A DNA stretch of 64,000 nucleotides. Origin: Hypanus sabinus (Eukaryota). The position numbers and the translations under genes were made by a program. The number at the start of each line of letters is the position of its first letter. Within the stretch, counting starts at the first letter, position 1. Shown here piece by piece: positions 32,362-64,000 of the stretch. Below the pieces are notes generated by a model. The model saw only the letters and a program-made list of their open reading frames with translations. It made no database searches and was not told where the DNA came from. The stretch is from NCBI RefSeq assembly GCF_030144855.1, contig NC_082733.1, positions 37,076,001-37,140,000 of the forward strand, read 5' to 3'.

Positions 32362-32383
32362 AAAGTGACTAATTCTCTGGATC

Positions 32384-35084: not shown

Positions 35085-35160
35085 GAACAGAAAGTGACGA
35101 CAAAGCTGTTGAAATTTGGTTATGCTTTGTCACCAGCAGACGAGGGTTCGGTATAAAGGT
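35085..35160 (+). promoter_or_regulatory. ISG20 copy A proximal promoter: TATA box and disrupted IRF/ISRE motif
   Basis: TATAAA at 35152-35157; GAAAGTGACGAC at 35090-35101. Confidence 0.6.
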
Positions 35161-35244
35161 GCTCGAGCAAATGAGGAAACGGGAGAGCGAAGAGGAAGTT
35201 GCTGTTGCTACATTGGACCCTTTGCAGGGAGTACAAGCTGTACA

Positions 35245-35475
35245 ATGGTAGATCCTTCCAAGTATGTTGCCATGGACTGTGAGATGGTGGGACTTGGCTG
35301 CAATGGCCGTGACAGTGGTCTGGCGCGCTGTAGCATCGTTGATTATGATGGGAAGGTGATCTATGACAAATTTATCAAACCAGATGGGACAATTACAGAT
35401 TACAGGACACCCGTGAGTGGGATTCGCCCATCGGATATGGATACAGCTGTGCCTTATCAGATCGCCAGGGAAGAG
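35245..35475 (+). CDS. ISG20: Interferon-stimulated 20 kDa exonuclease, copy A, exon 1
   Basis: MVDPSKYVAMDCEMVGLG...SGLARCSIV...YDKFIKPDGTITDYRT.VSG: ISG20-type residues with no N-terminal extension; donor GAG|GTAAGT. Confidence 0.9.
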
Positions 35476-38392
35476 GTAAGTTTCCCCTTGTAATACTTCT
35501 TGTAATTATTCAGCCACATAACCATTCTTATTAATCCTTCCTTGAATATGTCTAACATCTGACTGAGAGATCTGGTGAAGGACTACTTGATGGAAGTTTT
35601 ACGTAGCACCCATTGTGACTTCATAAGACCATAAGATATAAGAACAGAATTAGGCCATTTGGCCCATTGAGTTTGGTCCATCATTCCATCATGGCTGATT
35701 TATTATCCTTTTCAACCACATTCTCCTGCCTTCTCCCCATAGCCTTTGATGCCCTGGCTAATCAAGAACCTATCATCCTCTGCCTTAAGTATACCCAATT
35801 ACTTAAGGATATTCAAAACCATTTTAAAGCCAATGGAAAGAGTTGGAAGAATGGCTACTTTGAGAAATTAGGAAAAAGTGATAGCCTGTTTATATCTAAC
35901 AAGCTCACACACGTGATAATAAACAGATTGCTTCAGTAATCTGGTAAATATTGGACCCAGTACAAGGGGAATTACCCCCCTGTTTATTGCCACGAATCTT
36001 TAGCATCTACTTGAGAGCAGAGGGAACCTGAGCTTTCAAACTCCAAGGAGTGCACATCACAAACAACTTCCCATGGTCCCAGAACACAGTCAAGAAAGCT
36101 CACCAATGCTTCAGCTTTCTGAAGGGGCTGAACTTTGCACACTCATACTGGCATCATTCTCCAGTTGCGCAGTAGAGAGCATCTGAACAAGCTGCACCAC
36201 TGCTTGATGTGGAAGCTGCACTGTGGCAGACAGGAATCTCTACAGCGGGTAGTCAAAACTGCCCAGAGCATCACCAGCTCCAGCCCACCCACCACGAAGG
36301 ATATATATGCAGAAAGGTGCTGAAAGAGGCCAGTAACATTGTGAAGGATCCCACCCACCCTGCTCATGAACTGTTTGCCCCACTCCCATCAGGGAGGAGG
36401 CTACGTGACATCCACCAGACTCAAAAGTAGATACTTTCCACAAGCAGTAAGACTGATCAACACCTCCACCCACAAACTCCATCGCGACTTTATTATTTAC
36501 CATTAGTCATTTTATGTACAGCCTAATGATCACTTTATGGACATACAGTCTCTCTAAGTATATAGCTATCTTGTGCATTTATATTTATCACTTGTTTTAT
36601 TATCATTATTTGTTCTTTATCTTTTGTGGTTTTGTTTAAGCTGCATCGGATCCAGCGTAACAATAATTTTGTTCTCCTTACACTTGTATTCATTAATCTA
36701 GTCTAAGGCTCAACCCTTTGAATACAGGATTCTCTTGGCAATGCTATAGAATGATCAGTGTAGGTCTTGTGCTGACGTCTCTTTAGTGGGACTTGAAGCA
36801 TAGCCATACTGGCAGTCATTGTTTCCCAGTCCAAACGTAAGCTGTCAAACCAGTTGTGTTCAGCAGTCGTCAACCAATCAACTTCAGGAATGCTTTGACG
36901 GAACTGAAATGGGAGGCTGTCTATTCTTCTCACATCTCTTCCTCCCCACCCCAACCAATAACTCACGAAGAAACTTAACTGAATTAATTAGTTGACCAAG
37001 AGTCTTAGTGACAAGGCTAGGTTTTGAGGGGCGAAACCAGGAGGGTATTATCAATAGGAGAGATTCTGCAGATGCTGGAAATCCAGAGTAAGACACACAA
37101 AATGCTGGAGGAACTCAGCAGGTCAGGCAACGTCTATGGAAAGGAGTAAAGAGTTGATGCTTTGTGCTGAGATCCTATATCAGATCAGGAAAGGAAGATT
37201 GAAAGAGACAGAATAGGAAGGTGGGGGTGTGCGAGGGGAAGGGGTGCCAGCTGGCAGGTGATAGGTGAAGCCAGATAAGGGGGAAAATAAAAAAAAAACG
37301 TTTAGTAACGTACAAGATGCTGGAGGATCTCCGCAGGTTAGGCAGCATCTATGGAGAGGAATAAAGAGTAAACGTTTCAGGCTGAGACCCATCATCAAGT
37401 ATTTGTCAGATATATTATTAGCTTCCAGTGCATCAAAGCTTTCTAAAACATCAGTAAAGGTTCCCCTGTAAAATATGAACAGATTTCTGAAATTTCAGTG
37501 ATATTAGTAATGATTTTGGATAAAGTGGATTCTCTTTTCCATGGCATGTCATTGGTTCTGGGTGGACTGGGCTCATCTCTGCTGTATCTTGTTTCGGTCC
37601 AGAGTGAAGGGTGTCGATCCAAAATGCCGACTGTTTACTTCCCACCATAGATACTGCCTGACGTGATGGTTTTCCCCCGGCAGTGTGTGTGTTGCTCCAG
37701 ATTCCAAAATCTGCAGTGCCGTGTGTCTCTGTAATCTGATTCCGTCTGATGTTTGTTTGATCAAACAGATCTTTATTTGGAAGTGTTATCAAAAGAAATG
37801 GATCCAAACTAAATAAGTGGAGTCTGAAATACACATCAGCCTTGATGTAATTAAATGTAAATACTCAGTGATAGGTGTCGGAATGTACTGCCTGGTACGG
37901 CAGATACGTCAGAGACTTTCAATAGACGTTTACATGAATGTGTGAGAAATGGAAGGGTATGGACATTGTGTATGCAGAGGGGATTATTTAGAATGGCCAT
38001 TTGATTACTAATTTAATTGGATCGGCACAACACTGTGGGCCGGAAGGCCTGTCCTGCGCTATGATGTTTCTATCTTCTTAAATGCTGGGCTGACAATCCT
38101 TTTCCTGTTATTCATACTTAACATAATTCAGAGTAATTAGCCGGCATCTGTGGCTAAGCAGTTAATATTTGTGTTTACTAACATTATGCTGGGGGCTTCC
38201 AGATAGCTTGACCAACACCCATCCTTCAGACAACACCAACAATCGATTGTTTTATCTCTGTGGGACCTTGCTGTGTGCAAAAAATCAATGGCAGCTCTGA
38301 CACTTTGAAAGCAGCTTGAGGCACCCTGAGGAAAAGTCAGGCAATCTCGGAGTGGAAGTTTGTTGCACTAACATTCTGCTGCTTCCATTCAG

Positions 38393-38593
38393 ATTCTGGA
38401 GATCTTGAAAGGAAAGATTATCGTGGGCCACGATCCCAGGTCTGACTTCTGTGTACTGAATACGGACGTTTCGAACTACGCCATACGGGACACCTCATCG
38501 TGCAAGTTACTGATCACAAAAGCAAAACTGAAAACCGACAGACGTGCCTCATTAAAGGCTCTCTGCCAGAAACTGCTGGGGAAAAGAATACAG
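38393..38593 (+). CDS. ISG20: ISG20 copy A exon 2
   Basis: Acceptor ttccattcag; ILEILKGKIIVGHDPRSDF...RRASLKALCQKLLGKRIQ; donor CAG|GTACAT; 201 nt, same as the AEN middle exon. Confidence 0.9.
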
Positions 38594-39399
38594 GTACATG
38601 AAAGGTCACATGAAACTTCTCTTCCTCTGTAATGCTTCTAATTCTATCCCATCCGTTCTTCAAAGTTTAAAGTTCAAGAAAATATTTTATCAAAGTGCAT
38701 ATATGTCACCGTAGGCTGCCATGGGATACATTTCCTTGTGGGCATTCACAATAAATACAAAGAAACACAACAGAATTAATGAAAAACTGCACGCAACAAA
38801 GACGGCAAACAACCAATGTGCAAAAGACACCAAACTGCAAATACAAAATAATATTAATAATAATACATAAGTAACAAATAAGGAGAACATGAGTTGTAGG
38901 CTCCTCATATGATAAGCCATTCAATCCCCGAATCATTTTTGTGAACCTCCTTTGAACCCTCTCCAATGTCAACATGCCCTCTCTTAGATAAGGGGCATTA
39001 ATGATGATGAGTAGGTACATGAGTAGGAAAGATTTAGAGGAATACAAACTGAACATGAGGGAATGGGATTACCTCAAAGAGATGACTTTGTGGGCCTGGG
39101 CGAGTTGGGCCAAGGGGCTGGTTTTCATGTTGTGTCACTCTGGCTCTACAACAGTGCCGATGTATGATGGAATCCTGGCCTTTACACAGGATCTCTCAAT
39201 GGCCGCACATCTGGCACAAACGGAAGAGCTACTTCATCACAGTTCCGATGACCTAGTTAATCATGACCCCAGCTACCGTCAATGTGGGGTTTGCCTGTTC
39301 TCCCTTTAACCAGCTGGGTTCCTCTAAATATTTCCTCCCACAATCCTAAGACATGAAGGTTAGACAGCCACTGTAACTTCCACCTAGTTGCTTGCAAAT

Positions 39400-40190
39400 T
39401 CATAACACCACAAGGTAGATGCAGATTAGGCCATTCGGCCGAGTAAGTCTGATCTGCCTTTTGATCATGGCTGATTTATTTTCCCTCTCCACCTCATTCT
39501 CCTATCTTCACCCTGTAACCTTTGATACCCTTACCAATCAAGAATGTATCAACCTCTGCTTTAAATCTACCCAATGACTTGATGTCCACAACTGCCTGTG
39601 GCAACGAATTCCGCTGATTCATTACCCTCCAGATAAGGAAATTCCTCATCATCTCTTTTCTAAAGGGATGTCCTCGTATTCTGAGGCATTTCAATCTTTG
39701 TTAGGTTTTGATGAGATCTCCCCTCATCCTTCTGCATACCAGTGAGTACAGGCCCAGAGCCATCAGTCGGTCCTTATATGGTATCGTTTTCGTTCCTGAA
39801 ATCATTCTTGTGAATCTCTTCTGAACCAATGGCAGCACATCCTTTCTTAGATAAGGGGCCCAGAACTGCTCACAATACTCCAAGTGACACCTTATAAAGC
39901 ATCAACTTTACATCCTCCCTTTTATATTCTAGTCCTCTGCAAATGCATACTCACATTGCATTTGCCTTCCCACTACCAACACAATCTCCAATTTAACCTT
40001 TAGAGAACCCTTTGCAACTCGGATTTTTGAATTAAAACAGCCTATGCTTTTATTTCTTCCTCCAAAATACATGACCATGCAATTCCTGGCACTATATTCC
40101 ATCTGCCACTTGCTTGCCCATTCTCCTAATCTGTCTATGTTCCTCTGCAGTCTCGCTGCTTCCTCAACGCTACCTGCCCTCCACCTGTCT
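39400..40190 (-). mobile_element. Old CR1 LINE fragment, also present in the duplicate at about 60540-61330
   Basis: LQRNIDRLGEWASKWQM and EYCEQFWAPYLRKD. Confidence 0.75.
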
Positions 40191-40311
40191 TCGTATTGCA
40201 TAAACAAACTCATAACGTCATGCTGCATGGACGCTGGACCTTAGTGTCTGAACCGACCATCAAGCTTTTATTCACGGGAGTTTAGAAAAATGAGAGTGGA
40301 TCTTATAGAAA

Positions 40312-41300
40312 TCTATCCCACAAGGATCTGTTCTGAGACTTCCACTTTTCGTGATTTTTATTAACGACTTGGATGTGGAGGTAGAAGGGTGGGTTGGCAA
40401 GTTTGCAGATGACACAAAGGTTGGTGGTGTTGTAGATAGTATAAAGGATTGTCAAAAATTGCAGAGAGACATTGATAGGATGCAGAAGTGGCGCGAGAAG
40501 TGGCAGATGGAGTTCAACCCGGACAAGTGTGAGGTGGTACACTTTGGAAGGACAAATCCCAAGGCAGGGTACAAAGTAAATGGCAGGATACTTGATAGTG
40601 TGGAGGAGCAGAGGGATCTGGGGGTACATGTCCACAGATCCCTGAAAGTTGCTTCACAGGTAGGTAGGGTAGTTAAGAAAGCTTATGGGGTGTTAGCTTT
40701 CATAAGTCGAGGGATAGAGTTTAGGAGATGTGATGTAATGTTCCAGCTCTGTAAAACTCTGGTTAGGCCACACTTGGTGTACTGTGTCCAGTTCTAGTTG
40801 CCTCACTATAGGAAGGATGTGAAAGCATTGGAAAGGGTACAGAGGAGGTTTACCAGGATGCTGCCTGGTTTAGAGAGTAAGGATTATGATCAGGGATTAA
40901 GGGAGCTAGGGCTTTACTCTTTGGAGAGAAGGAGGATGAGAGGAGACATAATAGAGGTGTGCAAGATATTAAGAGGAATAGATAGAGTGGATAGCCAATG
41001 CCTCTTCCCCAGGGCACCACTGCTCAGTACAAGAGGACATGGCTTTTAGGTAAGGGGAGGGAAGTTCAAGGGGGATATTAGAGGAAGGTTTTTCACTCAG
41101 AGAGTGGTTGGTGCGTGGAATGCACTGCCTGAGTCAGTGGTGGAGGCAGATACACTAGTGAAGTTTAAGAGACTACTAGACAGATATATGGAGGAATTTA
41201 AGGTGGGGGGTTATATAGGAGGCAGGGTTTGAGGGTCGGCACAACATTATGGGCCAAAGGGCCTGTAACGTGCTGTACTATTCTATGTTCTATGTTCTAT
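40312..41300 (+). mobile_element. Young 5'-truncated CR1 LINE specific to copy A
   Basis: FINDLD...KFADDTK...WQMEFNPDKC...LVRPHL; (TTCTATG)n tail; empty site at about 61447 in the duplicate. Confidence 0.9.
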
Positions 41301-41759
41301 ATACTATGACCAGGACTGGGTAAATTAGATGCAGAAAGGAGTTCCTAATGATGAAGTCTGGATTGGATTTTTTTTTATCATCGCATGTTCCGAGACAGTG
41401 AAAAGCTTTTGTTTTGCATACTAGCCAGGCAGATCATACCATATTTCATTATGTCAATGCAGTTATAGAGGAAGTGCGGGGCAGGTAGACAAAGTCAAGG
41501 ACCAGGGAGTCACAGTGTAAGGATAAAGGAGTAAGTTCAACGTTCAAAGTAAAGTTTATTATCAGAGTACATACATGTCACCACATACAACCCTGAGATT
41601 CTTTTTTCTGCAGGCATACTTGTCAAATCTATAAAACAGTAACTGTAAACAGGATCAATGGACAACAAACTGTGCAAGTGCAGATATTTAAAAAGCAATA
41701 AAGAATAAGCATGAAATAACAAGATAAAAGAGTCCTTAACTGAGTGTAGTTATCTCCTT

Positions 41760-42930
41760 TTGTTCAAAGAGCCTGATAGTTGAGGGGTAGTAACCGAACT
41801 TGAAACTGCTGGTGTGAGTCCTGAGGCAGTTGTACCTTCTACCTGATGGCTACAGCAAGAAAAGAGCCTGGCCTAGGTGGTGAGGATCTTTGGTGATTGA
41901 TGTACCATCAATAACTCTCGGAGACGTGAGGCAAGGTATAGTCTTTTATTGGCTGGAAGAAAGAACAAGCAGCAATTGACCACCGCACTACATCCTGGAG
42001 ACTGAGGCTGGGGCTGTCTCTCCAATCGTCTTTATACCAGGGTCCGTGGGAGGAGCCACAGGAGCAGTCAACGGGGGGGGGGGGGGGGGGCGTGTCCAGA
42101 CGGGTATATGTAGTTCACCACAATGATGGACGCTGCTTTTCTACGGCAACATTTCATGTCAATGTGCTCAATGATTTGGAGGGTTTTCCCGTGATGTACT
42201 GGGCCGAATCCATAAACTTTTGAAGGATTTTCCGCTCAAAGGCATTGGTGTTCCCAAACCAGGCTGTAATGCAACAAGTCAATACACTTCCAATCACACG
42301 TCTGTAGAAGTTTGCCAAGGTTTTTGATGACATGCCAAACTCTCACAGGCTCCTGTAGAAGTAGAGGTACTGTCGTGCTTTCTTCGCAATTATAATTATA
42401 TGATAGGTCCAGGCCAGGTCCACTGAGATAGTGACATTCAGGAATTTAAAGTTACTGGCCCTGTCCACCTCGGATCCTTTGATGATTACTGGCTCTTGGA
42501 CCGTTGTTTTCCCTCTCCTGAAGTCAGCAATTAGTTCCTTGGTCTTATTGACATTGAGTGAGAGGTTGTTGTTATTACACCACTCAGCCAAATTTTCAAT
42601 TTCCCTCCTGTATGCTGATTCATCACCCCCTTTGTTACAGCCCACATCAGTGGTGACATCGACAAACTTGTGTATGGTGTTGGAACTGTACTTAGCCGCA
42701 CAGTCAAAGGCATGAAGCGAGTAGAGCAGGGGTTAAGTACACATCCTTGTGGAGCTCCTGTGCTGATGGAGATTGTGGAGGAAATGTTTTTTCCAATCCA
42801 AACTGACTGGGCTCTACAAGTGAGAAATCCAAGATCCAATTGCAAAAGAGTGTATTGAGGCTCAGGTCTTGAAGTTTACTGATTAGTTTTGAGGGGATGA
42901 TGGTGTTAAATGCCGAGCTGTATTCGAAAA
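41760..42930 (-). mobile_element. Rex1/Babar LINE fragment, duplicated at about 61915-63075
   Basis: [33 protein letters not shown]. Confidence 0.8.
41898..42122 (-). mobile_element. Short solo LTR (family length about 205-225 bp); other copies at 51267-51472 (+), 53550-53762 (-) and 62045-62271 (-)
   Basis: TGTGG...CATCA termini with internal TATA-like and AATAAA motifs; 5-bp TSD gtgat/atgat. Confidence 0.75.
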
Positions 42931-43255
42931 AGAATACCCTGATGAAGGGTCGCGACCCAAAACCTCAACTGTTCACTCTTTTCCATTGATGCTGCCTGTC
43001 CTGCAGAGTTCCCCCAGCATTGTGTGTGTTGCATAGAACAGAGAAATGTCTTCTCCCAGGGGAATTTATGAAATTCTCTATCTGAAAATTAGATATTATT
43101 GTAGAAATCAAAGGACATGGTGAGAAATCAACAAGGTATTAAAGTAACAAAGAATCTGCTGGAGGATCTCAGCTGTCAGCTGGTCAATCAGTGCCTGTGG
43201 TTGAGACCGTGCCTCTGGGCTGAGAGTGGAGAGGGGAGATGGGCATTATAAAGTG

Positions 43256-44095
43256 TGTTACGTATTCAGGCAACAATAAATATATGAGTTCGGCAAGGGT
43301 TTCTTATAACAAACAACACGTTTATTAAACACAGAAAACAAACCCCCCAAAAGTAAACAAACACTACCGTAACCGGAAACAGCTGCTGAGCGGCTGTTCA
43401 AACAGTTAGTAAAGTGATATTCCAAAACAGTTCTTAAAGTGATATTGCCAAAAGTTCGATATGCTCACAGTCCATTTAAAAGGAGAGACTTTACAGGACG
43501 ATTTAAGTTCTCTTTCACGTCGCTTGCTTCGATCCCCGACGTCGAAATTCCCACGAAGAATTTACGAAACCAGAACGGCTTAAAGGCACTGACCTTTCCT
43601 TCCTCACTACCTTCAATCCTTTCTAGGTAAACCTAGGGATTAGCACGAAGATAGTCAACGAAATCCTTCCAAATAAGGATCAAACAAAGGTCGCCCCCGT
43701 TTCACCGTAGAAAGCGATTCTCCTCGATCTTTAACTTCCAACCTTGAATCTTCACTCTCCTTTAATTCTCAAACTAACAGAATCATAAAGAACCTGTTGG
43801 CATTAACCTTTTAAACTTTAGGCATTAAATAAAAACTTCATCCTTCAACTAAACTGCGTCATCACTTCAAACACGCAGTGGCATGAAGTCAACTTGGCAA
43901 ATCCAGCCACGAACTGCCCCTCCTCACAGGGTGGGGTCTACCTTTTATAACCTGTAAAAAACCCATCACATGATCTCTACTGGCGGGAAAATGATGTCAT
44001 TCCACCATCACAAGACCATCACCTCAAGTCCAGTACAGCTTCAACCCCAGTCACATGACAAGGGCACCACTGTCATGTGTCACGAGTACGTAACA
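43256..44095 (-). repeat. 3' LTR (840 bp)
   Basis: TGTTACGTA...TACGTAACA inverted termini; adjacent polypurine tract GGAGGGAGG (minus strand) at 44096-44104. Confidence 0.95.
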
Positions 44096-44291
44096 CCTCC
44101 CTCCAAAAAAAACATTTTTGGTCTGACAAGAACAAAAATTTTTAACAATTGCTTACAAGAAAAACAAAGGTATAAATTTTATAACATACACAATACACAA
44201 CACCATCATATAACAGCTTATAAGTCACAATACAGTAGGAGTGTTACAATTGAAAAAAAAAGCACTCCAAAAAAAAAATTACAGTGTACAT

Positions 44292-44534
44292 TCAACATCG
44301 AGATAGACAATCAGCAACCACATTATCTTTACCTTTAATATGAGTTATCACAATATTGTACTCTTGTAACATCAAACTCCAATTTAATAACCTTCTGTTT
44401 TTGTTTTTCATCTTACACAGAAAAACTAACGGATTATGATCAGTGTAAACAATAAGTGGTTTCTGAGTTGTACTAACATATACCTCAAAATATTCCAAAG
44501 CTAAAACAAGAGATAACAATTCTTTCTCTATTGT
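44292..44534 (-). pseudogene. Orphaned C-terminal RNase H fragment of the LTR element
   Basis: IEKELLSLVLAL...VYTDHNPL...WSLMLQEY...KGKDNVVADCLSR, out of frame with the upstream ORF. Confidence 0.9.
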
Positions 44535-47500
44535 CTCTGCTCTAACTGTAAATGTACTAATTTTTCATCAATATTTTCCAGAATGGTTGAATTTGGTAAC
44601 CTAACAGAAACAATGTTGGATTTAGAATGAAAGTCAGATGAATCATCTATCACGTTCCTAGTTAAATCAAACTCATTCTCACTAACCACAACAGTCACAG
44701 TATCAGATTGTTTCTCAAAATATGGTTTCAACATATTTATATGGCAAAGTTGTGTTGACCTTCTACGATCTGGAGTTTTTACCACGTAACCCACATCATT
44801 AATTTTAGACACAATTTCATAAGGACCATGAAATCTAGCTTGTAAAGGATTTGTCTGCACTGGGAAAAGAACCAACACCTTATCTCCAGACTTAAACATC
44901 CTCATCCTAGCATCTTTATCATACCAAGTCTTCATTTTCTCCTGAGCCAACTTTAAATTTTCCTTAGCTAAACTACAAGCTTTATGTAACCTGTCCTTAA
45001 ATTTCAACACATAGTCCAACAAATTAGTGTGTACTTCCTTATTAATCCACTGTTCTTTCAACAAAGCTAAAGGTCCTCTAACTCTATGCCCAAACACAAG
45101 TTCAAATGGACTAAAACCTAAAGATTCCTGTACCGATTCCCTTACTGCAAATAAAAGTAAGTTTATACCCTCATTCCAGTCACTTTCATTTTCCACACAA
45201 AATGTCCTAATCATATTCTTGAGGGTAGAATGAAACCTCTCCAAGGCACCCTGCGATTCTGGATGGTATGCAGACGAAGTGATTTGCTTAGCTCCCAATT
45301 TATAAACTATCTGTTGAAACAATCCAGACATAAAATTACTGCCTTGATCAGTTTGTATCTCCTTAGGTAATCCAAAATAAGTAAAAAAATTTATAAGGGC
45401 CTTTGTCACAGTCTTAGCTTTTATATTCCTAAGTGGTACTGCCTCTGGAAACCTAGAAGAAGTACACATGATAGTCAACAAATACTGATAACCAGTTTTT
45501 GTCTTTGGTAATGGACCAACACAATCTACAATAACTTTAGAAAATGGTTCACCAAATGCTGGGATAGGTTGTAATGGAGCTACTGGTGTAACCTGATTTG
45601 GTTTACCCACAATTTGACAAGTATGGCACGTTTTACAAAACATCGCCACATCTTTTCTTAGACCAGGCCAGTAAAAATGTTTTAAAATCTTGTCCACAGT
45701 TTTCCTTACCCCTTGATGTCCACCTAAAGGCACACTATGAGCTAAAGTCAAAATCTCATTTCGATAAGCTTTTGGAACAACTACCTGGTAAACAACATTC
45801 CAATCCTCACTTGCAGGAATTGTAGGCGATCTCCACTTCCTCATCAACACTCCTTTTTCCAAGTAATATCCTACTGGCACCTTATCAATTTCACTATCTA
45901 GTAAAACCTGCTCTTTTAATTTTATAATCTCAGAGTCTCTATTCTGCTCTGCTATCATCTCCTTCCTAGACAAAGATAAATCTTTATAGTCAGACTTACT
46001 CCCAGAATCTTGTTCAAACAACGAAGATAAGAAAGTCTCTGACACATCCTCAAAACTCGAATCCTGAGTTGAACAGTCCTGAATAACAACCTCATTCTGC
46101 GCATCAATCTTTTTAGCCATAGCTCTAGTCACAACACAGGAAGAATCTGTGTTAGAATTCATCTCTGGTTCCTCTGACTCCATTGTCAAATGCACTTCAG
46201 GAAAAACTTGTCCACCTGCCAAGTCATTACCTAACAATAAAGAAATACCCTTCACAGGTAAGCTATGCTGTAATCCTACTTTAACAAATCCAGTAACTAA
46301 CCCTGACTTTAAATTTACTTTATGTAAATGTACAGGCATAAAATCACTTCCAACACCTCTTATGTAATTTACCTCACCAGTATCAGACTCTTCATTAAAC
46401 TTCAACACACTGTCTAACATCAATGATTGAGAAGCACCAGTATCCCTAAGGATTTTTATTGGCACCAGAGTAGATCCTTCCTTCAAGGATACAAACCCTT
46501 CAGTTACAAAATGATCATATCCCTTTCTAACTTGGTCAGACTCTAACAAAGCCTCATTTGTTTTTATCAAACCCTGTAACTTTACAGGTTCTTCAGTATG
46601 TTGCACACAAGCATCTGGAACTGCTTCCTTCTCTTTCTTTCTCAATTTGAAACAGTTAGCTATTACATGGCCAGGCTTCTTACAATAGTTACAAGTAAGA
46701 CCAAACTGTCTTTCCTTCACAGGCTTTCCTTTCTCATTAACTTTCTCATTAACCTCCGATTTAATTTCAAATTTATCTAGAGTCTCCGTGTTATTTTTCC
46801 TCTTAAAAATTCTGCCCTGAGGAAATTTGTTCTTATGGTTCAAAACATACTCATCAGCTAATCTAGCACAGTCCTGCAATTTATCAGTATCCTTCTCATT
46901 TAAGTAGGTCCTTACTTCAACAGGAATGCTTCTTTTAAATTCCTCCATTAAAATCAGCTCTCTCAATGTATCATAGTCCCCATTTACATTTTTAGAAGAA
47001 ACCCATCTCTCAAAACACATAGCTTTATCATAGGCAAATTCCACATAAGTTTTTTCCACAGACTTTTTCAAACTTCTGAATCTTTCCCTATATGCTTCTG
47101 GGACTAACTCATATGCGTTTAAAATATGACTCTTTACAATATCATAATCAAGAGCTTGTGCAGCTGTTAAAGCTGTGTAAACTTGTTGTGCTTTGCCTTT
47201 AATTACACTTTGTAACAACACTGACCATTTATCTTTCGGCCACTCTGACATCAGAGCAATAGTTTCAAAATGTTGAAAATACCTTTCCACTTCTGTTTCA
47301 CTAAATGGAGGGACCAATTTAATTTCTTGACTAGCAACAAACGTTTTTTTAGAACCAGAAGACTGATTTCCAGTCCTTAATTCCTCCATTGCATATGCAA
47401 ATTCTCTCTTCTTTTGTTCTGCCTCCAATTTACACCTCTCCAAATCAGCTTTACTTTGTTCCAATTTCATTTGTTCGATTTGCAACTGCATCTCCAGATT

Positions 47501-47707: not shown

Positions 47708-47808
47708 TGCTGCCGAATACCACAACAAGCCAAACAAAAGAACCGAGTAATCCCCGTTTCCAAAACACCGATTTAAAAGTTAGCAAGCATTTAAACTCAA
47801 AAAATTCA

Positions 47809-47826
47809 ATCCCGGACGAGCCCCCA
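47809..47826 (-). other. Primer-binding site for tRNA-Pro
   Basis: Minus strand TGGGGGCTCGTCCGGGAT, the classic 18-nt tRNA-Pro PBS, 7 nt from the 5' LTR. Confidence 0.9.
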
Positions 47827-47833
47827 TATTTAA

Positions 47834-49317: not shown

Positions 49318-49464
49318 GACAGCTACAAAGGACACTCGTCTGTGGAGGATGCAAGTGCAGCGATGGAGCTCTTCAGACTTGTAGATAACACGTGGGAGCT
49401 TCAACTCACCAATGGTCTCAGGGTGGAGATAGTAAACCGATTTGAAGGACGTAACAGATATTAA
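49318..49464 (+). CDS. ISG20: ISG20 copy A last exon (48 aa plus stop); whole protein 192 aa
   Basis: Acceptor ctcctttccttcaacag; DSYKGHSSVEDASAAMELFRLV with ExoIII; TAA at 49462-49464; AATAAA at 49467 and 49510. Missed by the ORF track. Confidence 0.9.
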   Translation, partial: DSYKGHSSVEDASAAMELFRLVDNTWELQLTNGLRVEIVNRFEGRNRY

Positions 49465-53549: not shown

Positions 53550-53762
53550 TGATGCACCATCAATAACTCTGAGACATGGGTTAAGGTAGGCTTTTATGGG
53601 CTGGAAGAAAGAACAAGCAGCAAGTGACCACCACACCACATCCTGGAGACTGAGGCAGGGACTGTGTCTCCAATCGCCTTTATACCGGGGTCAGTGGGAG
53701 GAGCCACAGGAGCAGTCAGCGGGGGGAGTGGTTGTCCAGACAGGTATATGTAGTTCACCACA
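53550..53762 (-). mobile_element. Short solo LTR specific to the duplicate
   Basis: Absent at the paralogous site near 24090; flanked by acacacc on both sides. Confidence 0.8.
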
Positions 53763-54239
53763 ACACACCACAGGCCCTTCAGCAAACAATGTTTCTGATA
53801 ACTGGGGAGTCTAGTACCAGAGGGCCCAGCTGCAGATTACAAGGATGTTAGAACAGAGATGAGAAGGAATTTCTTTAGTCAAAGATGGTAAATCTGTAGA
53901 ATTAATGGCCACAGATGGCTGTGGAGGCCAAAACATTGGGTATATTTAAAGCAGAGGTTGCTAGGTTTTTGATTAGTAAAGATGTCAAAGATTATGGGAA
54001 GAAGACAGGAGAATGGGTTTGAGAGGGATAATAAATTAGTCATGATCAAATGGTGGAGCAGACACGTTGGACTGAATGACCTAATTCTTATCTTTGTGTT
54101 ATGGAACTTGTGCCGACCTTTTAACTTTCCTCTTAAGATCAATCTAAATGTTCCCTCCTGCTAAGTCCTTCGTTTCTCTTTCATCTATCCACCTTGTCTC
54201 TCAAATGTCCCTAATATATCTGTTTCACCTTTGTGACAG

Positions 54240-54430
54240 GTCGGCAGAGACGGTCACTGTTCTGTTGAGGATGCCCGCACTGCAATGCAATTGTACAAGC
54301 TAGTTGAAGTTTAGTGGGAAGAGAAGCTTCACAGCGAGTTGTGGACAGAACATGATCACGCGGTGTCTGACACAAGCTCTGAAATCAGTCACCACATGGA
54401 CGATCAGTATTGGCCTGCTGGATTACACAA
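54240..54430 (+). pseudogene. AEN: Duplicated AEN last exon with a premature stop
   Basis: Acceptor intact; VGRDGHCSVEDARTAMQLYKLVEV then TAG at 54312-54314 (CAG in AEN); homology ends at about 54430. Confidence 0.88.
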
Positions 54431-55420
54431 CTTGGTAGTGGGTACCAAGCACATCTTTCCCTCCCCCGCCTTTCCGCTTTCTGCAGGGATTGCTCCCTAC
54501 GCATCTCCCTCGTCCATTCCTTCCCCCCCCCCCCCAACATCCCTTCCCACCGATCACCCTCCTGGCACTTATCCTTGTAAACAGAACAAGTGCTACACCT
54601 GCCCTTACACTTCCTCCCTCACCACCATTCAGGGCCCCAGACAGTCCTTCCAGGTGAGGCGATACTTCACCTGTGAGTCGGCTGGTGTGGTATACTGTGT
54701 CTGGTGCTCCCGGTGTGGCCCTTTATATATTGGTGAGACCCGACGCAGACTGGGAGACCGTTTCGCCGAACACCTACGCTCGGTCTGCCAGAGAAAGCAG
54801 GATCTCCCAGTGGCCACACATTTTAATTCCATGTCCCATTCCCATTCTGATATGTCTATCCATGGCCTCCTCTACTGTCAAGATGAAGCCACACTCAGGT
54901 TGGAGGAACAACACCTTATATACCGGCTGGGTAGCCTCCAACCTGGTGGCAAAAACATTGACTTCTCTAACTTCCGTTAATGCCCCTCCTCCCCTTCTTA
55001 CCCCATCCGACATATTTAGTTTTTTCCCCTCTCCTTTTTCTTTCCCTCTTTCTGCCCATCACTCTGCCTGTTCTCCATCTCCCTCTGGTGCCTCCCTCCC
55101 CCTTTCTTTCTCCCTAGGCCGCCCATCCCATGATCCTTTCCCTTCTTCAGCTCTGTATCTATTTTGCCAATCACCTTTCTGGCTCTCAGCTTCACCCCAC
55201 CCCCTCCGGTCTTCTCCTATAATTTCACATTTTCCCTTCCCCCTCCTACTTTCAAATCCCTCACTATCTTTCCTTTCAGTTAGTCCTGACGAAAGGTCTC
55301 AGCCGGAAATGTCGACAGTGCTTCTCCTTATAGATGCTGCCTGGCCTGCTGCAATCCACCAGCGTTTTGTGTGTGTTGCTTGAATTTCCAGCATCTGCAG
55401 ATTTCCTCATGTTTGCTTTT
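54431..55420 (+). mobile_element. 5'-truncated Penelope-like element with an open GIY-YIG endonuclease domain (stop at 54980)
   Basis: CxxxxCxxC linker, VVYCVWCSRCGPLYIGETRRRLGDRFAEH, PVATHF, LEEQHLIYRLGSLQPGGKN, then the pyrimidine-rich tail. Confidence 0.9.
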
Positions 55421-57105
55421 GAAACATCCAGTAAGTAACAGTTCTGTGGGTGAAAACATCTTGTTAATGAGGGAGGTCAGACGAGAATGGCCAGACTGGT
55501 TCAAGCTGACAGGAAGGTGACAGGAACTCAAATAAATATGTATCATAACCATGGCATGCAGAAGGGCATCTCTGACTGCACACTGAACCTTGTTTGGCTA
55601 CAACAGCAGAAGACCACAATGGGTTCCACTCCTGTACCTAATAAAACAGACACTGATTGTGCATCGTGAAATTTGATTTTTTCATCAGCAGTAGAGTGAA
55701 GTGCATAAAAAATTCTAAGTTACAATAGGAAATATATGAAATAAACAAGTACAGTAGCGCAAACTGTGAGCAAGATAGTGAGGTTATGACTGGGGATTAT
55801 AGCCTTTGTTATAAATCCTGTAATTTGGAAGCTGATTTAAAATTTCAGGATGTTAACAGAAACTGAAAAGGCAGATGGTGAGAAACTATGTGCACTGGTC
55901 TGAGATCCGAGGATTAAAGGTTGTCTAACAAGTTAGACTTAAGGACATTTTTGATTTTCCAAAGAGTGAGGTTAGGCAGCACTTTTACACATGTAGTGGT
56001 AGAAATATGGAAATCTCTTCTACAAAATGCAGATGATGCTGGACCAACCATTAAATTTAAATCTGAGTTTGATAAATGTTTGTTTGATTAGTGAATTATT
56101 TAAGGACACGGTGGGAGGGGGAGTGAGCATGTCGGGATTAGGTCAACGATCAGTTGTAAGCTCAGTTTGAGGGGTATGGATAGGGTAAATGCAAGCAGGC
56201 TTTTTCCATTGAGGTTGGGTGAGACTAGAACTAGAGTTCATGGGTTAAGGATGAGAGGTGAAATTTTTAACGGGAACCTGAGATTGGTGAGACTGTGGAA
56301 TGATCTGCCAGTGGAAGTGGTGAATGTGGGTTCAATTTCAACATTTAAGAGACATTTGTGTATGTAGGTGGATGGGAGAGCAATTGTCCAGGTGCAGGTC
56401 AATAGGAATAGGCAGAAAAGTAGGTTGGCATGGATCAGATGGGCTGAAGGGCCTGTTGTTATGCCATAGGGTTCTGTGACTCAATGCATGTGGGAAAGGG
56501 TTTATGGGACGACTCATCTTCATCCTGTTCCTGAGTTAATTAAAAGATTAATTAAAATACCACAACATGCAATAGGCTGGCTGCTATTTGGAAACAGGAT
56601 AATGGAGCAACAGACATAAAATGCTGGAGGAACTCAGCCAGTCAGGCAGCATCTCTGAAAATAAATAAACATTTGTGGGAATGGGATAATAGAGTTTCCT
56701 TTGTAAGGGGTGACGTTCTTCAGAAACTCAAATGTAATGGAAGTTATACCCAAACCTTTTTTTTAACCATCTCTGGCATTTGCAAGGTAAATTAAAGCAT
56801 CACAGTGTGTGTACACGTATGGAGTCTGTCACAGGTCTTTTTGTCACACAGAGAAATTCATGCAGCTATCTTTTCCTGTCAGATGATCCAGGTTTGTGTA
56901 TCAACAACTTCTGGGGAATTGGATAGAAGAATATCCACTCGCTCTCTGCCGAAAAGTATTTTTAAGGTGGGGTGTATTCATGTGATATTGCAGTGGCAAG
57001 CCAACACAAAAAAATAAGCAAATAAGACAACATTGTAACCATGGATATTATTAGATGTGGGCGTATTCTATCTCTGTTGTTGACTTGATGATACTTTACT
57101 GAACA

Positions 57106-57172
57106 GAAAGTGAAACAAAGCTGTTGAAATTTAGTTATGCTTTGACACCAGCAGACGAGGGTTCGGTATAAA
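57106..57172 (+). promoter_or_regulatory. ISG20 copy B promoter: IRF-E/ISRE plus TATA box
   Basis: GAAAGTGAAAC at 57106-57116; TATAAA at 57167-57172. Confidence 0.7.
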
Positions 57173-57259
57173 GGTGATCGAGCAAATGAGGAAACAGGAG
57201 AGTGCAGAGGAAGTTGCTGTTGCTACATTGGACCCTTTGCAGGGAGTACAAGCTGTACA

Positions 57260-57490
57260 ATGATAGATCCTTCCAAGTATGTTGCCATGGACTGTGAGAT
57301 GGTGGGACTTGGCCGCAATGGCCGTGACAGTGGTCTGGCGCGCTGTAGCATCGTAGATTATGATGGGCAGTTAATCTATGACAAATTTATCAAACCAGAT
57401 GGGACAATTACAGATTACAGGACGCACGTGAGTGGGATTCGCCCATTGGATATGGAAACAGCTGTGCCTTATCAGATCGCCAGGGAAGAG
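57260..57490 (+). CDS. ISG20: ISG20 copy B exon 1
   Basis: MIDPSKYVAMDCEMVGLG; open frame; donor GAG|GTACAT. Confidence 0.88.
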
Positions 57491-59412
57491 GTACATTTCC
57501 CCGTTGTAATACTTCTTGTAATTATTCAGCCACATAACCATTCTTATTAATCCTTCCTTGAATATGTCTAACATTTGACTGAGAGATCTGGTGAAGGACT
57601 ACTTGATGGAAGTTTTTATGTAGCACCCATGGTGACATCATAAGATTTAGGTCACTTGGTCACTTTATGGACATACAGACTTTCTAAGCATATAAGCTAT
57701 CTTGTGTATTTATATTTATTGTGTTATGTTTTATTATCAATATTTGTTCTTTAACTTTTGTGGTTTTGTTTAAGCTGCATCGGATCCAGCAATAATTTTG
57801 TTCTCCTTACACTTGTGTTCATTAATCTAGTCTAAGGCTCAACCCTTTGAATACAGGATTCTCTTGGCAATGCTATAGAATGATCAGTGTAGGTCTTGTG
57901 CTGACGTCTCTTAAGTGGGACTTGAAGCATAGCCATATGGGCAGTCATTGTTCCCCAGTCCAAACTTAAGCTGTCAGACCAGTTGTGTTCAGCAGTCGTC
58001 AACCAATCAACTTCAGGAATGCTTTGATGGAACTGAAATGGGAGGCTGTCTATTCTTCTCACATCTCTTCCTCCCCACCCCAACCAATAACTCACCAAGA
58101 AACTTAACTGAATTAACTAGTTGCCCAAGAATCTTAGTGACAAGGCTGGTTTTTGAGGAGCGAAACCAAGAGCGTATTATCAATAGGAGAGATTCTGCAG
58201 ATGCTGGAAATCCAGAGCAAGACACACAAAATGCTGGAGGAACTCAGCAGGTCAGGCAACGTCTATGGAAAGGAGTAAAGAGTTGATGCTTTGTGCTGAA
58301 ATCCTACATCAAATCAGGAAAGGAAGATTGAAAGAGACAGAATAGGAAGGTGGGGGTGTGCGAGGGGAAGGGGTGCCAGCTGGCAGGTGATAGGTGAAGC
58401 CAGATAAGGGGGAAAATAAAAAAAAACGTTTAGTAATGTACAAGATGCTGGAGGATCTCCACAGGTTAGGCAGCATCTATGGAGAGGAATAAAGAGTAAA
58501 CGTTTCAGGCTGAGACCCATCATCAAGTATTTGTCAGATATATTATTAGCTTCCAGTGCATCAAAGCTTTCTAAAACATCAGTAAAGGTTCCCCTGTAAA
58601 ATATGAACAGATTTCTGAAATTTCAGTGATATTAGTAATGATTTTGGATAAAGTGGATTCTCTTTTCCATGGCATGTCATTGGTTCTGGGCGGACTGGGC
58701 TCATCTCTGCTGTATCTTGTTTCAGTCCAGAGTGAAGGGTGTCGATCCAAAATGCCGACTGTTTACTTCCCACCATAGATACTGCCTGACGTGATGGTTT
58801 TCCCCCGGCAGTGTGTGTGTTGCTCCAGATTCCAAAATCTGCAGTGCCGTGTGTCTCTGTAATCTGATTCCGTCCGATGTTTGTTTGATCAAACAGATCT
58901 TTATTTGGAAGTGTTATCAAAAGAAATGGATCCAAACTAAATAAGTGGAGTCTGAAATACATTTAATTACATCAAGGCTGATGTGTAAATACTCAGTGAT
59001 AGGTGTCGGAATGTACTGCCCGGTACGGCAGATACGTCAGAGACTTTCAATAGACGTTTACATGAATGTGTGAGAAATGGAAGGGTATGGACATTGTGTA
59101 TGCAGAGGGGATTATTTAGAATGGCCATTTGATTACTAATTTAATTGGATCGGCACAACACTGTGGGCCGGAAGGCCTGTCCTGCGCTATGATGTTTCTA
59201 TCTTCTTAAATGCTGGGCTGACAATCCTTTTCCTGTTATTCATACTTAACATAATTCAGAGTAATTAGCCGGTATCTGTGGCTAAGCAGTTAATATTTGT
59301 GTTTACTAACATTATGCTGGGGGCTTCCAGATAGCTTGACCGACACCCATCCTTCAGACAACACCAACAATCGATTGTTTTCTCTCTGAGCCACCTTGCT
59401 ATGTGCAAAAAA

Positions 59413-59540
59413 CGAAGGGTCTCAACCCGAAACGTCGACATTGCTTCTCCTTATAGATGCTGCCTGGCATGCTGTGTTCCACCAGCATTTTGTGTGTGTG
59501 TATTGTTTGAATTTCCAGCATCTGCAAATTTCCTTGTGTT
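59413..59540 (+). mobile_element. Short Penelope-tail insertion specific to copy B
   Basis: Flanked by TGCAAAAAA at 59404-59412 and 59541-59549; empty site near 38280. Confidence 0.75.
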
Positions 59541-59658
59541 TGCAAAAAAATCAATGGCTGCTCTGACACTTTGAAAGCAGCTTGAGATATCCTGAGGAAA
59601 AGTCGGGCAAACTCGGAGTGGAAGTTTGTTGCACTAACATTCTGCTGTTTCCATTCAG

Positions 59659-59859
59659 ATTTTGAAGATTTTGAAAGGAAAGATTATCGTGGGCCACGAT
59701 CCCAGGCCTGACTTCTACGTACTGAAAATGGACATTTCGAACTACGCCACACGGGACACCTCAACGTGCAAGTTACTGATCGCAAGAGCAAACCTGAAAA
59801 CCGACAGACGTGCCTCGTTAAAAGTTCTCTGCCAGAAACTGCTGGGGCAAAGAATACAG
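59659..59859 (+). CDS. ISG20: ISG20 copy B exon 2; exon 3 expected about 40 bp past the window end
   Basis: ILKILKGKIIVGHDPRPDF...LLGQRIQ; AG/GT intact; the window end aligns to about 49279. Confidence 0.88.
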
Positions 59860-62800
59860 GTACAGAGTTGGTTTGCAAAGTCACATGAAACTTCTTTTCC
59901 TCTGTAATGCTTCACCTTCTATTCCATCCATTCTATTCCATAGATGGCAAACAAGCAATGTGCAAACGACAACAAACTGCAAATACAAAATAATATTAAT
60001 AATAATACATAAGTAACAAATAAGGAGAACATGAGTTGTAGGCGCCTCATATGATAAGCCATTCAATCCCCGAATCATTTTTGTGAACCTCCTTTGAACC
60101 CTCTCCAATGTCAACATGCCCTCTCTTAGATAAGGGGCATTAATGATGATGAGTAGGTACATGAGTAGGAAAGATTTAGAGGAATACAAACTGAACATGA
60201 GGGAATGGGATTACCTCAAAGAGATGACTTTGTGGGCCTGGGCGAGTTGGGCCAAGGGGCTGGTTTTCATGTTGTGTCACTCTGGCTCTACAACAGTGCC
60301 GATGTATGATGGAATCCTGGCCTTTACACAGGATCTCTCAATGGCCGCACATCTGGCACAAACGGAAGAGCTACTTCATCACAGTTCCGATGACCTAGTT
60401 AATGATGACTTCAGCTACTGTCAATGTGGGGTTTGCCTGTTCTCCCTTTAACCAGCTGGGTTCCTCTAAATATTTCCTCCCACAATCCTAAGACATGAAG
60501 GTTAGACAGCCACTGTAACTTCCACCTAGTTGCTTGCAAGTTCATAACACCACAAGGTAGATGCAGATTAGGCCATTCAGCCGAGTAAGTCTGATCTGCC
60601 TTTTGATCATGGCTGATTTATTTTCCCTCTCCACCTCATTCTCCTATCTTCACCCTGTAACCTTTGATACCCTTACCAATCAAGAATGTATCAACCTCTG
60701 CTTTAAATCTACCCAATGACTTGATGTCCACAACTGCCTGTGGCAACGAATTCCGCTGATTCATTACCCTCCAGATAAGGAAATTCCTCATCATCTCTTT
60801 TCTAAAGGGATGTCCTCGTATTCTGAGGCATTTCAATCTTTGTTAGGTTTTGATGAGATCTCCCCTCATCCTTCTGCATACCAGTGAGTACAGGCCCAGA
60901 GCCATCAGTCGGTCCTTATATGGTATCGTTTTCGTTCCTGAAATCATTCTTGTGAATCTCTTCTGAACCAATGGCAGCACATCCTTTCTTAGATAAGGGG
61001 CCCAGTGACACCAATACTCCAAGTGACACCTTATAAAGCATCAACTTTACATCCTCCCTTTTATATTCTAGTCCTCTGCAAATGCATACTCACATTGCAT
61101 TTGCCTTCCCACTACCAACACAATCTCCAATTTAACCTTTAGAGAACCCTTTGCAACTCGTATTTTTGAATTAAAACAGCCTATGCTTTTATTTCTTCCT
61201 CCAAAATACATGACCATGCAATTCCTGGCACTATATTCCATCTGCCACTTGCTTGCCCATTCTCCTAATCTGTCTATGTTCCTCTGCAGACTCGCTGCTT
61301 CCTCAACGCTACCTGCCCTCCACCTGTCTTCGTATTGCATAAACAAACTCATAACGTCATGCTGCATGGACGCTGGACCTTAGTGTCTGAACCGACCATC
61401 AAGCTTTTATTCACGGGAGTTTAGAAAAACGAGAGTGGAGCTTATATAAACTATGACCAGGACTGGGTAAATTAGATGCAGGAAGGAGTTCCTAATAATA
61501 AAGTCTGGATTGGATTGTTTTTTATCATTGCATGTTCCGAGACAGTGAAAAGCTTTTGTTTTGCATACTAGCCAGGCAGATCATACCATATTTCATTATA
61601 TCAATGCAGTTATAGAGGAGGTGCAAGGGAGGTAGACAAAGTTAAGGACCAGGGAGTCACAGTGTAAGGATAAATGAGTAAGTTCAACTTTCAAAGTAAA
61701 GTTTATTATCAGAGTACATACATGTCACCATATACAACCCTGAGATTCTTTTCCCTGCAGGCATACTTGTCAAATCTATAAAACAGTAACTGTAAACAGG
61801 AGCAATGGACAACAAACTGTGCAAGTGCAGATATTTAAAAAGCAATAAATAATAAGCATGAAATAACAAGATAAAAGAGTCCTTAACTGAGTGTAGTTAT
61901 CTCCTTTTGTTCAAAGAGCCTGATAGTTGAGGGGTAGTAACCGAACTTGAAACTGCTGGTGTGAGTCCTGAGGCAGTTGTACCTTCTACCTGATGGCCAC
62001 AGCAAGAAAAGAGCCTGGCCTGGGTGGTGAGGATCTTTGGTGATTGATGTATCGTCAATAACTCTCGGAGACGTGAGGCAAGGTATAGTCTTTTATTGGC
62101 TGGAAGAAAGAACAAGCAGCAATTGACCACCGCACTACATCCTGGAGACTGAGGCTGGGGCTGTCTCTCCAATCGCCTTTATACCAGGGTCCGTGGGAGG
62201 AACCACAGGAGCAGTCAACGGGGGGGGGGGGGGGGGGGCGTGTCCAGACGGGGTATATGTAGTTCACCACAATGATGGACGCTGCTTTTCTACGGCAACA
62301 TTTCATGTCAATGTGCTCAATGATTTGGAGGGTTTTCCCGTGATGTACTGGGCCGAATCCATAAACTTTTGAAGGATTTTCCGCTCAAAGGCATTGGTGT
62401 TCCCAAACCAGGCTGTAATGCAACAGTCAATACACTTCCAATCACACGTCTGTAGAAGTTTGCCAAGGTTTTTGATGACATGCCAAACTCTCACAGGCTC
62501 CTGTAGAAGTAGAGGTGCTGTCGTGCTTTCTTCGCAATTATAATTATATGACAGGTCCAGGCCAGGTCCACTGAGATAGTGACATTCAGGAATTTAAAGT
62601 TACTGGCCCTGTCCACCTCGGATCCTTTGATGATTACTGGCTCTTGGACCGTTGTTTTCCCTCTCCTGAAGTCAGCAATTAGTTCCTTGGTCTTCTTGAC
62701 ATTGAGTGAGAGGTTGTTGTTATTACACCACTCAGCCAAATTTTCAATTTCCCTCCTGTATGCTGATTCATCACCCCCTTTGATACAGCCCACATCAGTG

Positions 62801-64000
62801 GTGACATCGACAAACTTGTGTATGGTGTTGGAACTGTACTTAGCCGCACAGTCAAAGGCATGAAGCGAGTAGAGCAGGGGTTAAGTACACATCCCTGTGG
62901 AGCTCCTGTGCTGATGGAGATTGTGGAGGAAATGTTTTTTCCAATCCAAACTGACTGGGCTCTACAAGTGAGAAATCCAAGATCCAATTGCAAAAGAGTG
63001 TATTGAGGCTCAGGTCTTGAAGTTTACTGATTAGTTTTGAGGGGATGATGGTGTTAAATGCTGAGCTGTATTCAATAAAGAATACCCTGATGAAGGGTCG
63101 CGACCCAAAACCTCAACTGTTCACTCTTTTCCATTGATGCTGCCTGTCCTGCAGAGTTCCTCCAGCATTGTGTGTGTTGCATAGAACAGAGAAATGTCTT
63201 CTCCCAGGGGAATTTATGAAATTCTCTATCTGAAAATTAGATATTATTGTAGAAATCAAAGGACATGGTGAGAAATCAACAAGGTATTAAAGTAACAAAG
63301 AATCTGCTGGAGGATCTCAGCTGTCAGCTGGTCAATCAGTGCCTGTGGTTGAGACCGTGCCTCTGGGCTGAGAGTGGAGAGGGGAGATGGGCATTATAAA
63401 GTGGAATGGAGGAGGGGTGAGGGAGTAGGTGATCGGTGGAACGAGGAGGGTGTGAAGGGTGGTGATCCCGGTGGTGGGAGGTGGAAGACTGAGGCAGGTG
63501 AGTGATAGGCAAAAGCCGACGGAAAAGATTAAAATGAAAATTGTTGATTTTGGATGATCTGTCGTAATTATATTAAATGGTTCAAAGTTCACAGCAGATA
63601 AAAGAAGCACAATGGAATCAATGATAAAATACACACAAAGGCAGACAAACAATGTGCAAAAGATGGCAAATTGCCCAAATACAAAAATAATAATAATAAT
63701 AATCAATAGGTAATAGTGAGAACATAAATTGTAGAGTCTTTGAAAGAGAGTCCATATGTTGTAGAATCTGTTCAGTGTTGAGGTGAGTGAAGTCATCCAC
63801 ACTGGTTCAGGAGCCTGATGGTTGAGGGGTAAAAGCTTTTCCTGAACCTGCTGGTGTGGGACCTGGGGCTCCTCTACCTCCTTCCCGAAGGCTGCAGTGA
63901 GAAGGGAGCATAACCTGGATGGTGAAACCTGCTCTGGGGCCAAATTGTTTGCTCCTCCCCTAACTTCTATGTTTTTACAACGTGTCTCTGATTTTTCCCA

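Follow-up and report, generated by a model that had tools for sequence, protein, structure and literature searches.

The 64,000-nucleotide (nt) stretch of Hypanus sabinus DNA analysed here (NC_082733.1, positions 37,076,001 to 37,140,000), called the window below, carries the gene AEN followed by two head-to-tail copies of the nuclease gene ISG20, copy A and copy B, all on the plus strand. On balance, the two are probably intact ISG20 genes common to at least two stingray genera, in which gene conversion has homogenised most of the duplicated units while exon 2 and the C-terminal tail remain copy-specific, and both products are predicted to work. Comparison of the sequences indicates that the pair is older and mosaic, not a fresh copy. 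Its near-identical introns do not date the duplication, as the pair is recent by its introns and older than two genera by its exon 2.

Self-comparison of the window yields one large direct duplication, in which 23548-24749 and 33405-49279 recur at 53007-64000 as blocks of 0.4-2.2 kilobases (kb) with 89-98% identity (E 1e-148 to 0), interrupted by large indels. These block matches are far beyond chance. An earlier note on this DNA had placed the start of the second unit at 53007, copying sequence from 23548 onward, and these coordinates proved exact (93-94% identity). The same note had described two tandem ISG20 genes with open frames, splice dinucleotides, and the acidic residues of ExoI and ExoII, which translation and a splice check bore out: every window-visible coding exon of AEN, copy A, and copy B is open, in phase 0, and bounded by AG/GT ends. 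Copy A encodes 192 amino acids (aa) in exon 1 at 35245-35475 (D11, E13, M14, R54), exon 2 at 38393-38593 (H90, D91, S94, D95, R127, R128), and exon 3 at 49318-49464 (H150, D155, stop), with AATAAA at 49467. Its start codon is at 35245, not 35085, and its product equals residues 45-236 of H. sabinus P0122, exon 1 being 100% identical to the H. sabinus RefSeq protein. Copy B has exon 1 at 57260-57490 and exon 2 at 59659-59859, the most copy-specific part (derived P94, M101, T108, T113, A119, R120, Q141), and its intron 2 occupies 59860-64000. The window ends at the equivalent of 49279 in copy A, which projects exon 3 of copy B to about 64039, 39 nt past the edge. Exons 1-2 of copy B match residues 1-144 of RefSeq P0005 (XP_059808931) letter for letter, and this 192-aa record continues through an intact ExoIII, so that the exon 3 feared missing or broken is intact there; the ExoIII of copy B is known from the RefSeq record, not from the window.

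The age of the pair follows from its relatives. In a nuclease-domain tree of 55 rows, the B proteins of Hypanus and Hemitrygon join at 100/98 and the A proteins at 93/75, Hemitrygon akajei having one protein in each cluster. The duplication predates the Hypanus/Hemitrygon split because A and B orthologs occur in both genera. A recent duplication, as the 1.4-2.2% divergence of most intron blocks could be read, is ruled out by this orthology, and an independent duplication in each genus is ruled out since 15 residues would need parallel change. Run X1, from a relative, has two exon-2 contigs: the first is B-type, with 8 differences over 291 nt, and the second, with 25 over 279 nt, is A-type and extends into intron 2 of A. 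The B-type exon of X1 is without Y97, M101, and R120, and therefore belongs to a lineage distinct from Hypanus and Hemitrygon; the depths of the X1 contigs (~18 versus 32) are not taken as copy number. In run X15, also from a relative and guessed to be RNA, a B-type exon 2 continues on one side into the end of exon 1 and on the other into the start of a B-type exon 3 as in P0123, and copy B would thus be spliced in this putative RNA. Runs X2 and X15 represent one organism, possibly of the same species as P0121/P0123, and are not counted as a further lineage.

Twenty-one other named chondrichthyan species, including two Mobula, have one gene's worth of ISG20 protein each among the matches listed (the best 120 of 937 in one search). 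The duplication most likely arose in dasyatid stingrays or on their close stem. The lineage-specific expansion proposed in the earlier note is accordingly upheld as to its restriction to a lineage, here two dasyatid genera; its continuation past the window is not, the ISG20 loci found numbering two in Hypanus and the proteins two in Hemitrygon. Protein searches turned up no third ISG20 protein in either genus, and a query with exons 2-3 of copy B gave 14 matches and no third Hypanus cluster, at a protein level that extra pseudogenes or identical copies could escape.

The two copies are mosaics of copy-specific and species-specific parts. Among the four stingray proteins (two Hypanus, two Hemitrygon), 38 residues vary. 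Fifteen of them track the copy (residue 19, ten residues of exon 2, and 176-184), 4 track the species (6, 147, 148, and 164), and 19 track neither. Copy- and species-following residues group together along the protein (4 runs, p = 0.026). Of the 15 copy-pattern sites, 14 lie in exon 2 or the C-terminal tail, and the species pattern is seen at residue 6 and in the first half of exon 3. Residues 145-170 show 0 differences between the Hypanus copies, and 3 and 8 differences to their respective orthologs. K148 and R164 are present in both Hypanus copies, and R and K at these positions in both Hemitrygon copies and nearly all outgroups. When exon 2 is compared with the X1 contigs, its 25 variable sites comprise 12 that go with the copy, 1 that goes with the species, and 12 that go with neither.

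Copies A and B have 18 differences in exon 2, and 178 in 7981 aligned non-coding bases (2.2%). The non-coding mismatches are strongly clumped (chi2 152, 38 degrees of freedom, p 2e-15), leaving nine identical tracts of more than 200 nt, the longest of 427, 426, and 359 nt. In matched non-coding intervals, composed of the pieces among the 8 shown per run that neither overlap exons nor fall outside A/B-aligned blocks, A and B differ less between themselves than B does from the relatives: 26/1601 (A/B) versus 54/1601 for X1 (3 pieces), 31/2239 versus 94/2247 for X2 (5 pieces), 46/1930 versus 103/1940 for X3 (4 pieces), and 25/1723 versus 51/1723 for X7 (4 pieces); only X1 and X2 are shown to hold both exon-2 types. 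Among the contigs listed, no A-type 3' half of exon 2 was found in X2, and no spliced A-type contig in X15 or X18; records may drop out, so this has no bearing on the expression of A. Since the introns are closer between copies than between species while exon 2 follows the copy, partial gene conversion between the copies is indicated, and it is likely to be ongoing. A duplication that is older than a species split but has younger introns is described as a product of gene conversion in PMC3924837 (this and the other papers are cited from excerpts of their text).

The identity of both proteins as ISG20, as the earlier note had it, is supported by the same tree, in which all 27 ISG20-named rows lie on one side of a branch with 100/94, apart from AEN, ISG20L2, and REXO4, and both window proteins fall inside this clade together with tetrapod ISG20. 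The window AEN joins Mobula AEN at 100/91, and one REXO4-named row, probably a misnamed record, is found among the ISG20L2 rows. The best solved-structure match of copy B by sequence is human ISG20, 1WLJ (E 4e-54), which is also the best fold match (E 4e-25, template modelling score 0.79/0.90) of its predicted model (predicted local distance difference test score 90.9), and copy B is thus predicted to have a DnaQ-like fold. The DEDDh residues D11, E13, D95, H150, and D155 are conserved in all four stingray proteins; within the window, ExoI (D11/E13) and ExoII (D95) are visible for both copies and ExoIII only for A. In the alignment to 1WLJ, these five correspond to human D11, E13, D94, H149, and D154, the catalytic residues given in the excerpts of PMC9157404. 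Nine of 10 candidate RNA-contact positions, from the residue list in the part of PMC10085690 used, are identical in all four stingray proteins, with the exception of human H93, which is S94 in A and P94 in B. The equivalents of the ribose-contact residues (human M14, R53, D90) are present as M14, R54, and D91 in the 192-aa, nuclease-only stingray proteins. The A and B proteins are 86% identical, and both copies are predicted to be working 3'-5' RNases that are likely interferon-regulated, with a presumed antiviral role in rays.

ExoII reads GHAL in the window AEN and GHDP in both ISG20 copies. A lungfish ISG20 (P0020, in a cluster with Protopterus annectens) joins tetrapod ISG20, yet has the AEN-like ExoII GHAL instead of GHD. 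The best 120 of 937 matches contain no protein from a ray-finned fish under the name ISG20; those present are named ISG20L2 or REX4, or are unnamed. AEN lies directly upstream of the ISG20 pair at 18029-24761, and human ISG20 likewise adjoins AEN, at 15q26.1 (PMC9157404, excerpts). The presence of ISG20 beside AEN in cartilaginous fish suggests that this arrangement dates back at least to the origin of jawed vertebrates. The single-copy state that the earlier note attributed to mammalian ISG20 holds for human, the only species checked.

Motifs of the GAAASTGAAA type are candidate binding sites for interferon regulatory factors (IRFs). The window has five matches to this pattern, each of them upstream of one copy or the other, versus 0.55 expected, with the pattern picked post hoc and one match duplicating another: those at 29362 and 29395 are in the stretch lost by B, one site is shared by the copies, and that at 57106 is whole only in B. 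The upstream region that copy A shares with B (33405-35244, plus strand) has an IRF element (IRF-E)-like motif at 33843-33852, an interrupted IRF-E-like motif at 35090, and TATAAAG at 35152, which marks a likely promoter. The corresponding region of copy B (55422-57259, plus strand) has the shared IRF-E-like motif at 55859-55868, the B-only one at 57106-57115, and TATAAAG at 57167, which places TATAAAG 93 nt before the start codon in both copies. The matches at 29362 and 29395 belong to a pair of motifs resembling the interferon-stimulated response element (ISRE) or IRF-E, with a putative regulatory role, at 29355-29404 (plus strand) in the stretch kept only by A. Upstream of the likely promoter, the stretch 33800-34900, in which the shared IRF-E-like site lies, has 4 mismatches in 1098 nt to 55816-56914, and no other non-coding part is as strongly homogenised. 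Human ISG20 is induced via one ISRE by IRF1 (PMC9157404, excerpts). From these motifs, the two stingray copies may respond differently to interferon signals.

The copy-specific state of exon 2 can be explained in several ways. Divergence between A and B amounts to 5.4% within 100 nt of a block end versus 0.9% at 600-1200 nt, and exon 2 belongs to a block of 400 nt flanked on both sides by large indels; within this block, the intron parts differ by 6.3% and 12.1% and exon 2 by 9.0%. The peak of divergence is hence not confined to the codons of exon 2, as its intron flanks are comparable to the exon and the block is bounded by indels, and such indels stop conversion according to the excerpts of PMC3924837. 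On this pattern, an indel barrier to conversion, then purifying selection on B, is favoured over neofunctionalisation held by selection. In the latter case, as in red/green opsins, selection against conversion would keep the exon-2 and tail residues of B, either for a different class of RNA or for escape from a viral antagonist, an explanation that is possible but doubtful. Diverged exons amid converted introns are the published signature of such a history (PMC3924837, excerpts), and copy B has nine derived copy-pattern residues versus four in A; this imbalance is not significant (p 0.27). At five sites (S94P, S113T, K141Q, E181A, N184D), 13-14 of 14 outgroup chondrichthyan proteins carry the residue of A. 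P94 occupies the candidate RNA-contact position that matches human H93, beside the catalytic D94, and is placed by the predicted model within the opening turn of a helix, but human H93A retained activity on the substrate tested (PMC10085690, excerpts). Hypanus and Hemitrygon agree in every residue encoded by exon 2 of B but differ in 4 of those encoded by exon 2 of A, and P94, T108, T113, A119, and Q141 are also present in the B-type contig of X1. On the other hand, the ratio of nonsynonymous to synonymous substitution rates (dN/dS) between A and B reaches 0.77 overall, with 0.84 for exon 2 taken alone, and is indistinguishable from 1 (Fisher p 0.5); positive selection as a demonstrated process was dropped for this reason. 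A fuller form of the idea, in which the proline by the catalytic aspartate and the fixed exon-2 and tail residues alter the RNA specificity or antagonist resistance of B, are protected from conversion across genera, and go along with swapped interferon elements, is unlikely; if true, the pair would offer a natural test of how ISG20 distinguishes the RNA of viruses from that of the host. The barrier followed by purifying selection agrees with the B-type exon 2 of X15, which has 3 differences from Hypanus B, all silent (p ~0.015 if neutral).

Copy B might instead be redundant and under relaxed constraint, kept presentable by conversion while slowly heading to loss. The high A/B dN/dS, six private replacements in exon 1 of Hypanus B, an exon-1 donor off the consensus form of A, and the loss of the far ISRE pair fit this course, but it is improbable in view of the open 192-aa frame in two genera and the spliced B-type contigs in X15, and exon 2, the least converted part, is yet protein-identical between the genera. 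It is far less probable still that two haplotypes of one gene were assembled in tandem and that the two types are old alleles. Many intron windows differ by an allele-like 0-2%, the two contig types of X1 alone could be alleles, and no contig listed spans 53007; however, two independent assemblies (Hypanus and Hemitrygon) each give one A and one B, and the RefSeq numbers of the two ISG20 loci are consecutive after AEN. Moreover, unit B would then represent a haplotype in which 8.6 kb were deleted and AEN exon 3 was null, and its junction would lie at a point without homology.

Several observations weigh against two conserved, partially converted, and working genes. None of the contigs listed bridges 53007: one from X3 stops there, the start of another is at 53045, and repeats swamped the comparison; the support for two loci comes from RefSeq records and the contigs of relatives, not from H. 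sabinus reads, and the RNA nature of X15 is a guess about a run from a relative. The case for purifying selection on B is made by 3 sites, whereas relative to the B-type exon of X1, 3 of 6 changed codons alter the residue, and the private replacements in exon 1 of Hypanus B fit relaxation. The divergence upstream of exon 1 steps up at ~34900, where there is no large indel, and is poorly explained by an indel barrier. As for regulation, the strict ISRE pattern is not above chance (1 match; 24/100 shuffles), the IRF-type pattern was chosen after the matches had been seen, and the promoter is placed by motif only.

With these points in mind, the history of two working, partially converted genes can be outlined as follows. 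One duplication copied the locus from AEN intron 2 through ISG20 and left a dead AEN exon 3 ahead of B, and by orthology this happened before the Hypanus/Hemitrygon split, the pair also being present in a third ray lineage. Since then, judging from the site patterns, patches appear to have been overwritten between the copies within each species. The indels flanking exon 2 most likely shield it from conversion, and B would have gained its own residues there; its exon 2 is now apparently under purifying selection. By analogy with human ISG20, D11/E13/D95/D155 and H150 are predicted to trim single-stranded RNA from the 3' end with two metal ions. Dosage and divided regulation are the most likely reasons why both copies persist: A retains the far ISRE pair, and the IRF site near the promoter is whole in B but interrupted in A.

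Among known systems, human ISG20 (1WLJ) is the closest, with the same catalytic residues, M14/R53/D90 equivalents, AEN neighbour, and clade, and the best sequence and fold match. In contrast, stingrays have two copies where human has one, a C-terminal tail of ~17 residues that is common to cartilaginous fish and of low confidence in the model, S or P for H93, and A for V128. The stingray genes also have a TATA-like box, whereas the human promoter is titled TATA-less in the reference list of PMC9157404. AEN (ISG20L1) and ISG20L2 have the same DEDDh fold, and AEN has the same three phase-0 coding exons as ISG20, but both differ in their separate tree branches and long N-terminal extension. The duplication of PKR (EIF2AK2) in Myotis bats is likewise that of a normally single-copy, interferon-induced antiviral gene, duplicated in a lineage and found across species (PMC9683710, excerpts). 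Positive selection and functional differences were tested in that case according to the same excerpts, and the term gene conversion has 0 occurrences in the main text of the paper, whereas the stingray pair shows evident conversion and is known from sequence. The red/green opsin pair and other partially converted duplicates have introns that group by species and some exons that group by copy, as in the stingray pair (PMC3924837, excerpts). In the opsins, the peak is confined to an exon with known functional sites according to that source, whereas in stingrays the flanking intron is equally diverged and the block is indel-bounded, so that selection is inseparable from a physical barrier in this pair.

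Expansion of interferon-stimulated genes is common (PMC5747502, excerpts), and the stingray case is an ordinary kind of immune-gene duplication in which a change of job in one copy may have occurred. Both genes are already annotated as ISG20-like in RefSeq, and a literature search, covering few subscription journals and no supplements, found no paper on the stingray ISG20 pair. The RNA-target choice of ISG20 is listed as an open question in the excerpts of PMC9157404, and two natural variants that are 86% identical, with all catalytic residues kept and few fixed differences, make this choice testable.

The neighbouring AEN gene encodes 372 aa in three coding exons on the plus strand, at 18029-18742 (ExoI), 21027-21227 (ExoII), and 24558-24761 (ExoIII, stop), and its spliced product is identical letter for letter to P0257 (H. 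sabinus XP_059808927). The part of its intron 2 and exon 3 at 23548-24749 is the source of the left end of the duplicated unit, and unit B accordingly starts with a copy of it at 53007-54431 (plus strand). In this copy, the dead AEN exon 3 at 54240-54428 (plus strand) has a CAG>TAG stop at codon 25 (54312-54314), and its 3' end is cut where the copied stretch terminates at 54431. The junction at 53006/53007 is non-homologous, as by eye the 100 nt left of 53007 are unlike the 100 nt left of 23548; a homologous crossover between repeats is unsupported by these dissimilar left flanks. Unit B is without the 8.6 kb at 24750-33404 of copy A and has instead a repeat-derived stretch of 990 nt at 54432-55421, with a weak GIY-YIG match (E 0.0055, below the Pfam cut-off). 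An open stretch of 221 codons at 54315-54980 (plus strand) fuses the tail of the dead AEN exon 3 to the repeat with this weak match, and is probably no gene; the repeat may be Penelope-like.

Intron 2 of copy A contains a long terminal repeat (LTR) retrotransposon at 43256-48674 (minus strand), which is absent from copy B, with LTRs of ~840 nt and a 4-nt target duplication. Its insertion is later than the duplication because the empty target site is kept in B, at 63400-63403. The LTRs differ by 1 mismatch and 1 gap, and the element is very young and may be polymorphic. It has an open reading frame (ORF) of 1083 codons that encodes SCAN and integrase domains, and an RNase H piece comes after it; no reverse transcriptase domain was found in the two ORFs scanned. 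The order of integrase before RNase H, plus SCAN, presumably recalls Gmr1-like elements.

The gene models in the region have several peculiarities. The RefSeq models of copy A (XP_059808929/930) begin in the last exon of AEN (24758-24784) and splice to an acceptor at 35137, ahead of ISG20 exon 1; this points either to transcripts that read through from AEN into ISG20 or to a model that fuses two genes. The resulting 44-residue N-terminal extension was not accepted as a true gain, as it begins in AEN exon 3 and looks like read-through. Long whale and cotton-rat models (P0001, P0003), which top the protein search with exon 1 of copy A, may be similar fusions. The exon-1 donor of copy B at 57491-57496 is GTACAT versus the consensus-type GTAAGT in A, and the RefSeq model of B uses it anyway. 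Isoform X2 of the RefSeq copy A has a short alternative last exon that would drop ExoIII and is present in intron 2 of both copies (41770, 61917). The skate and elephant-shark records P0010 and P0016 also include forms ending before ExoIII.

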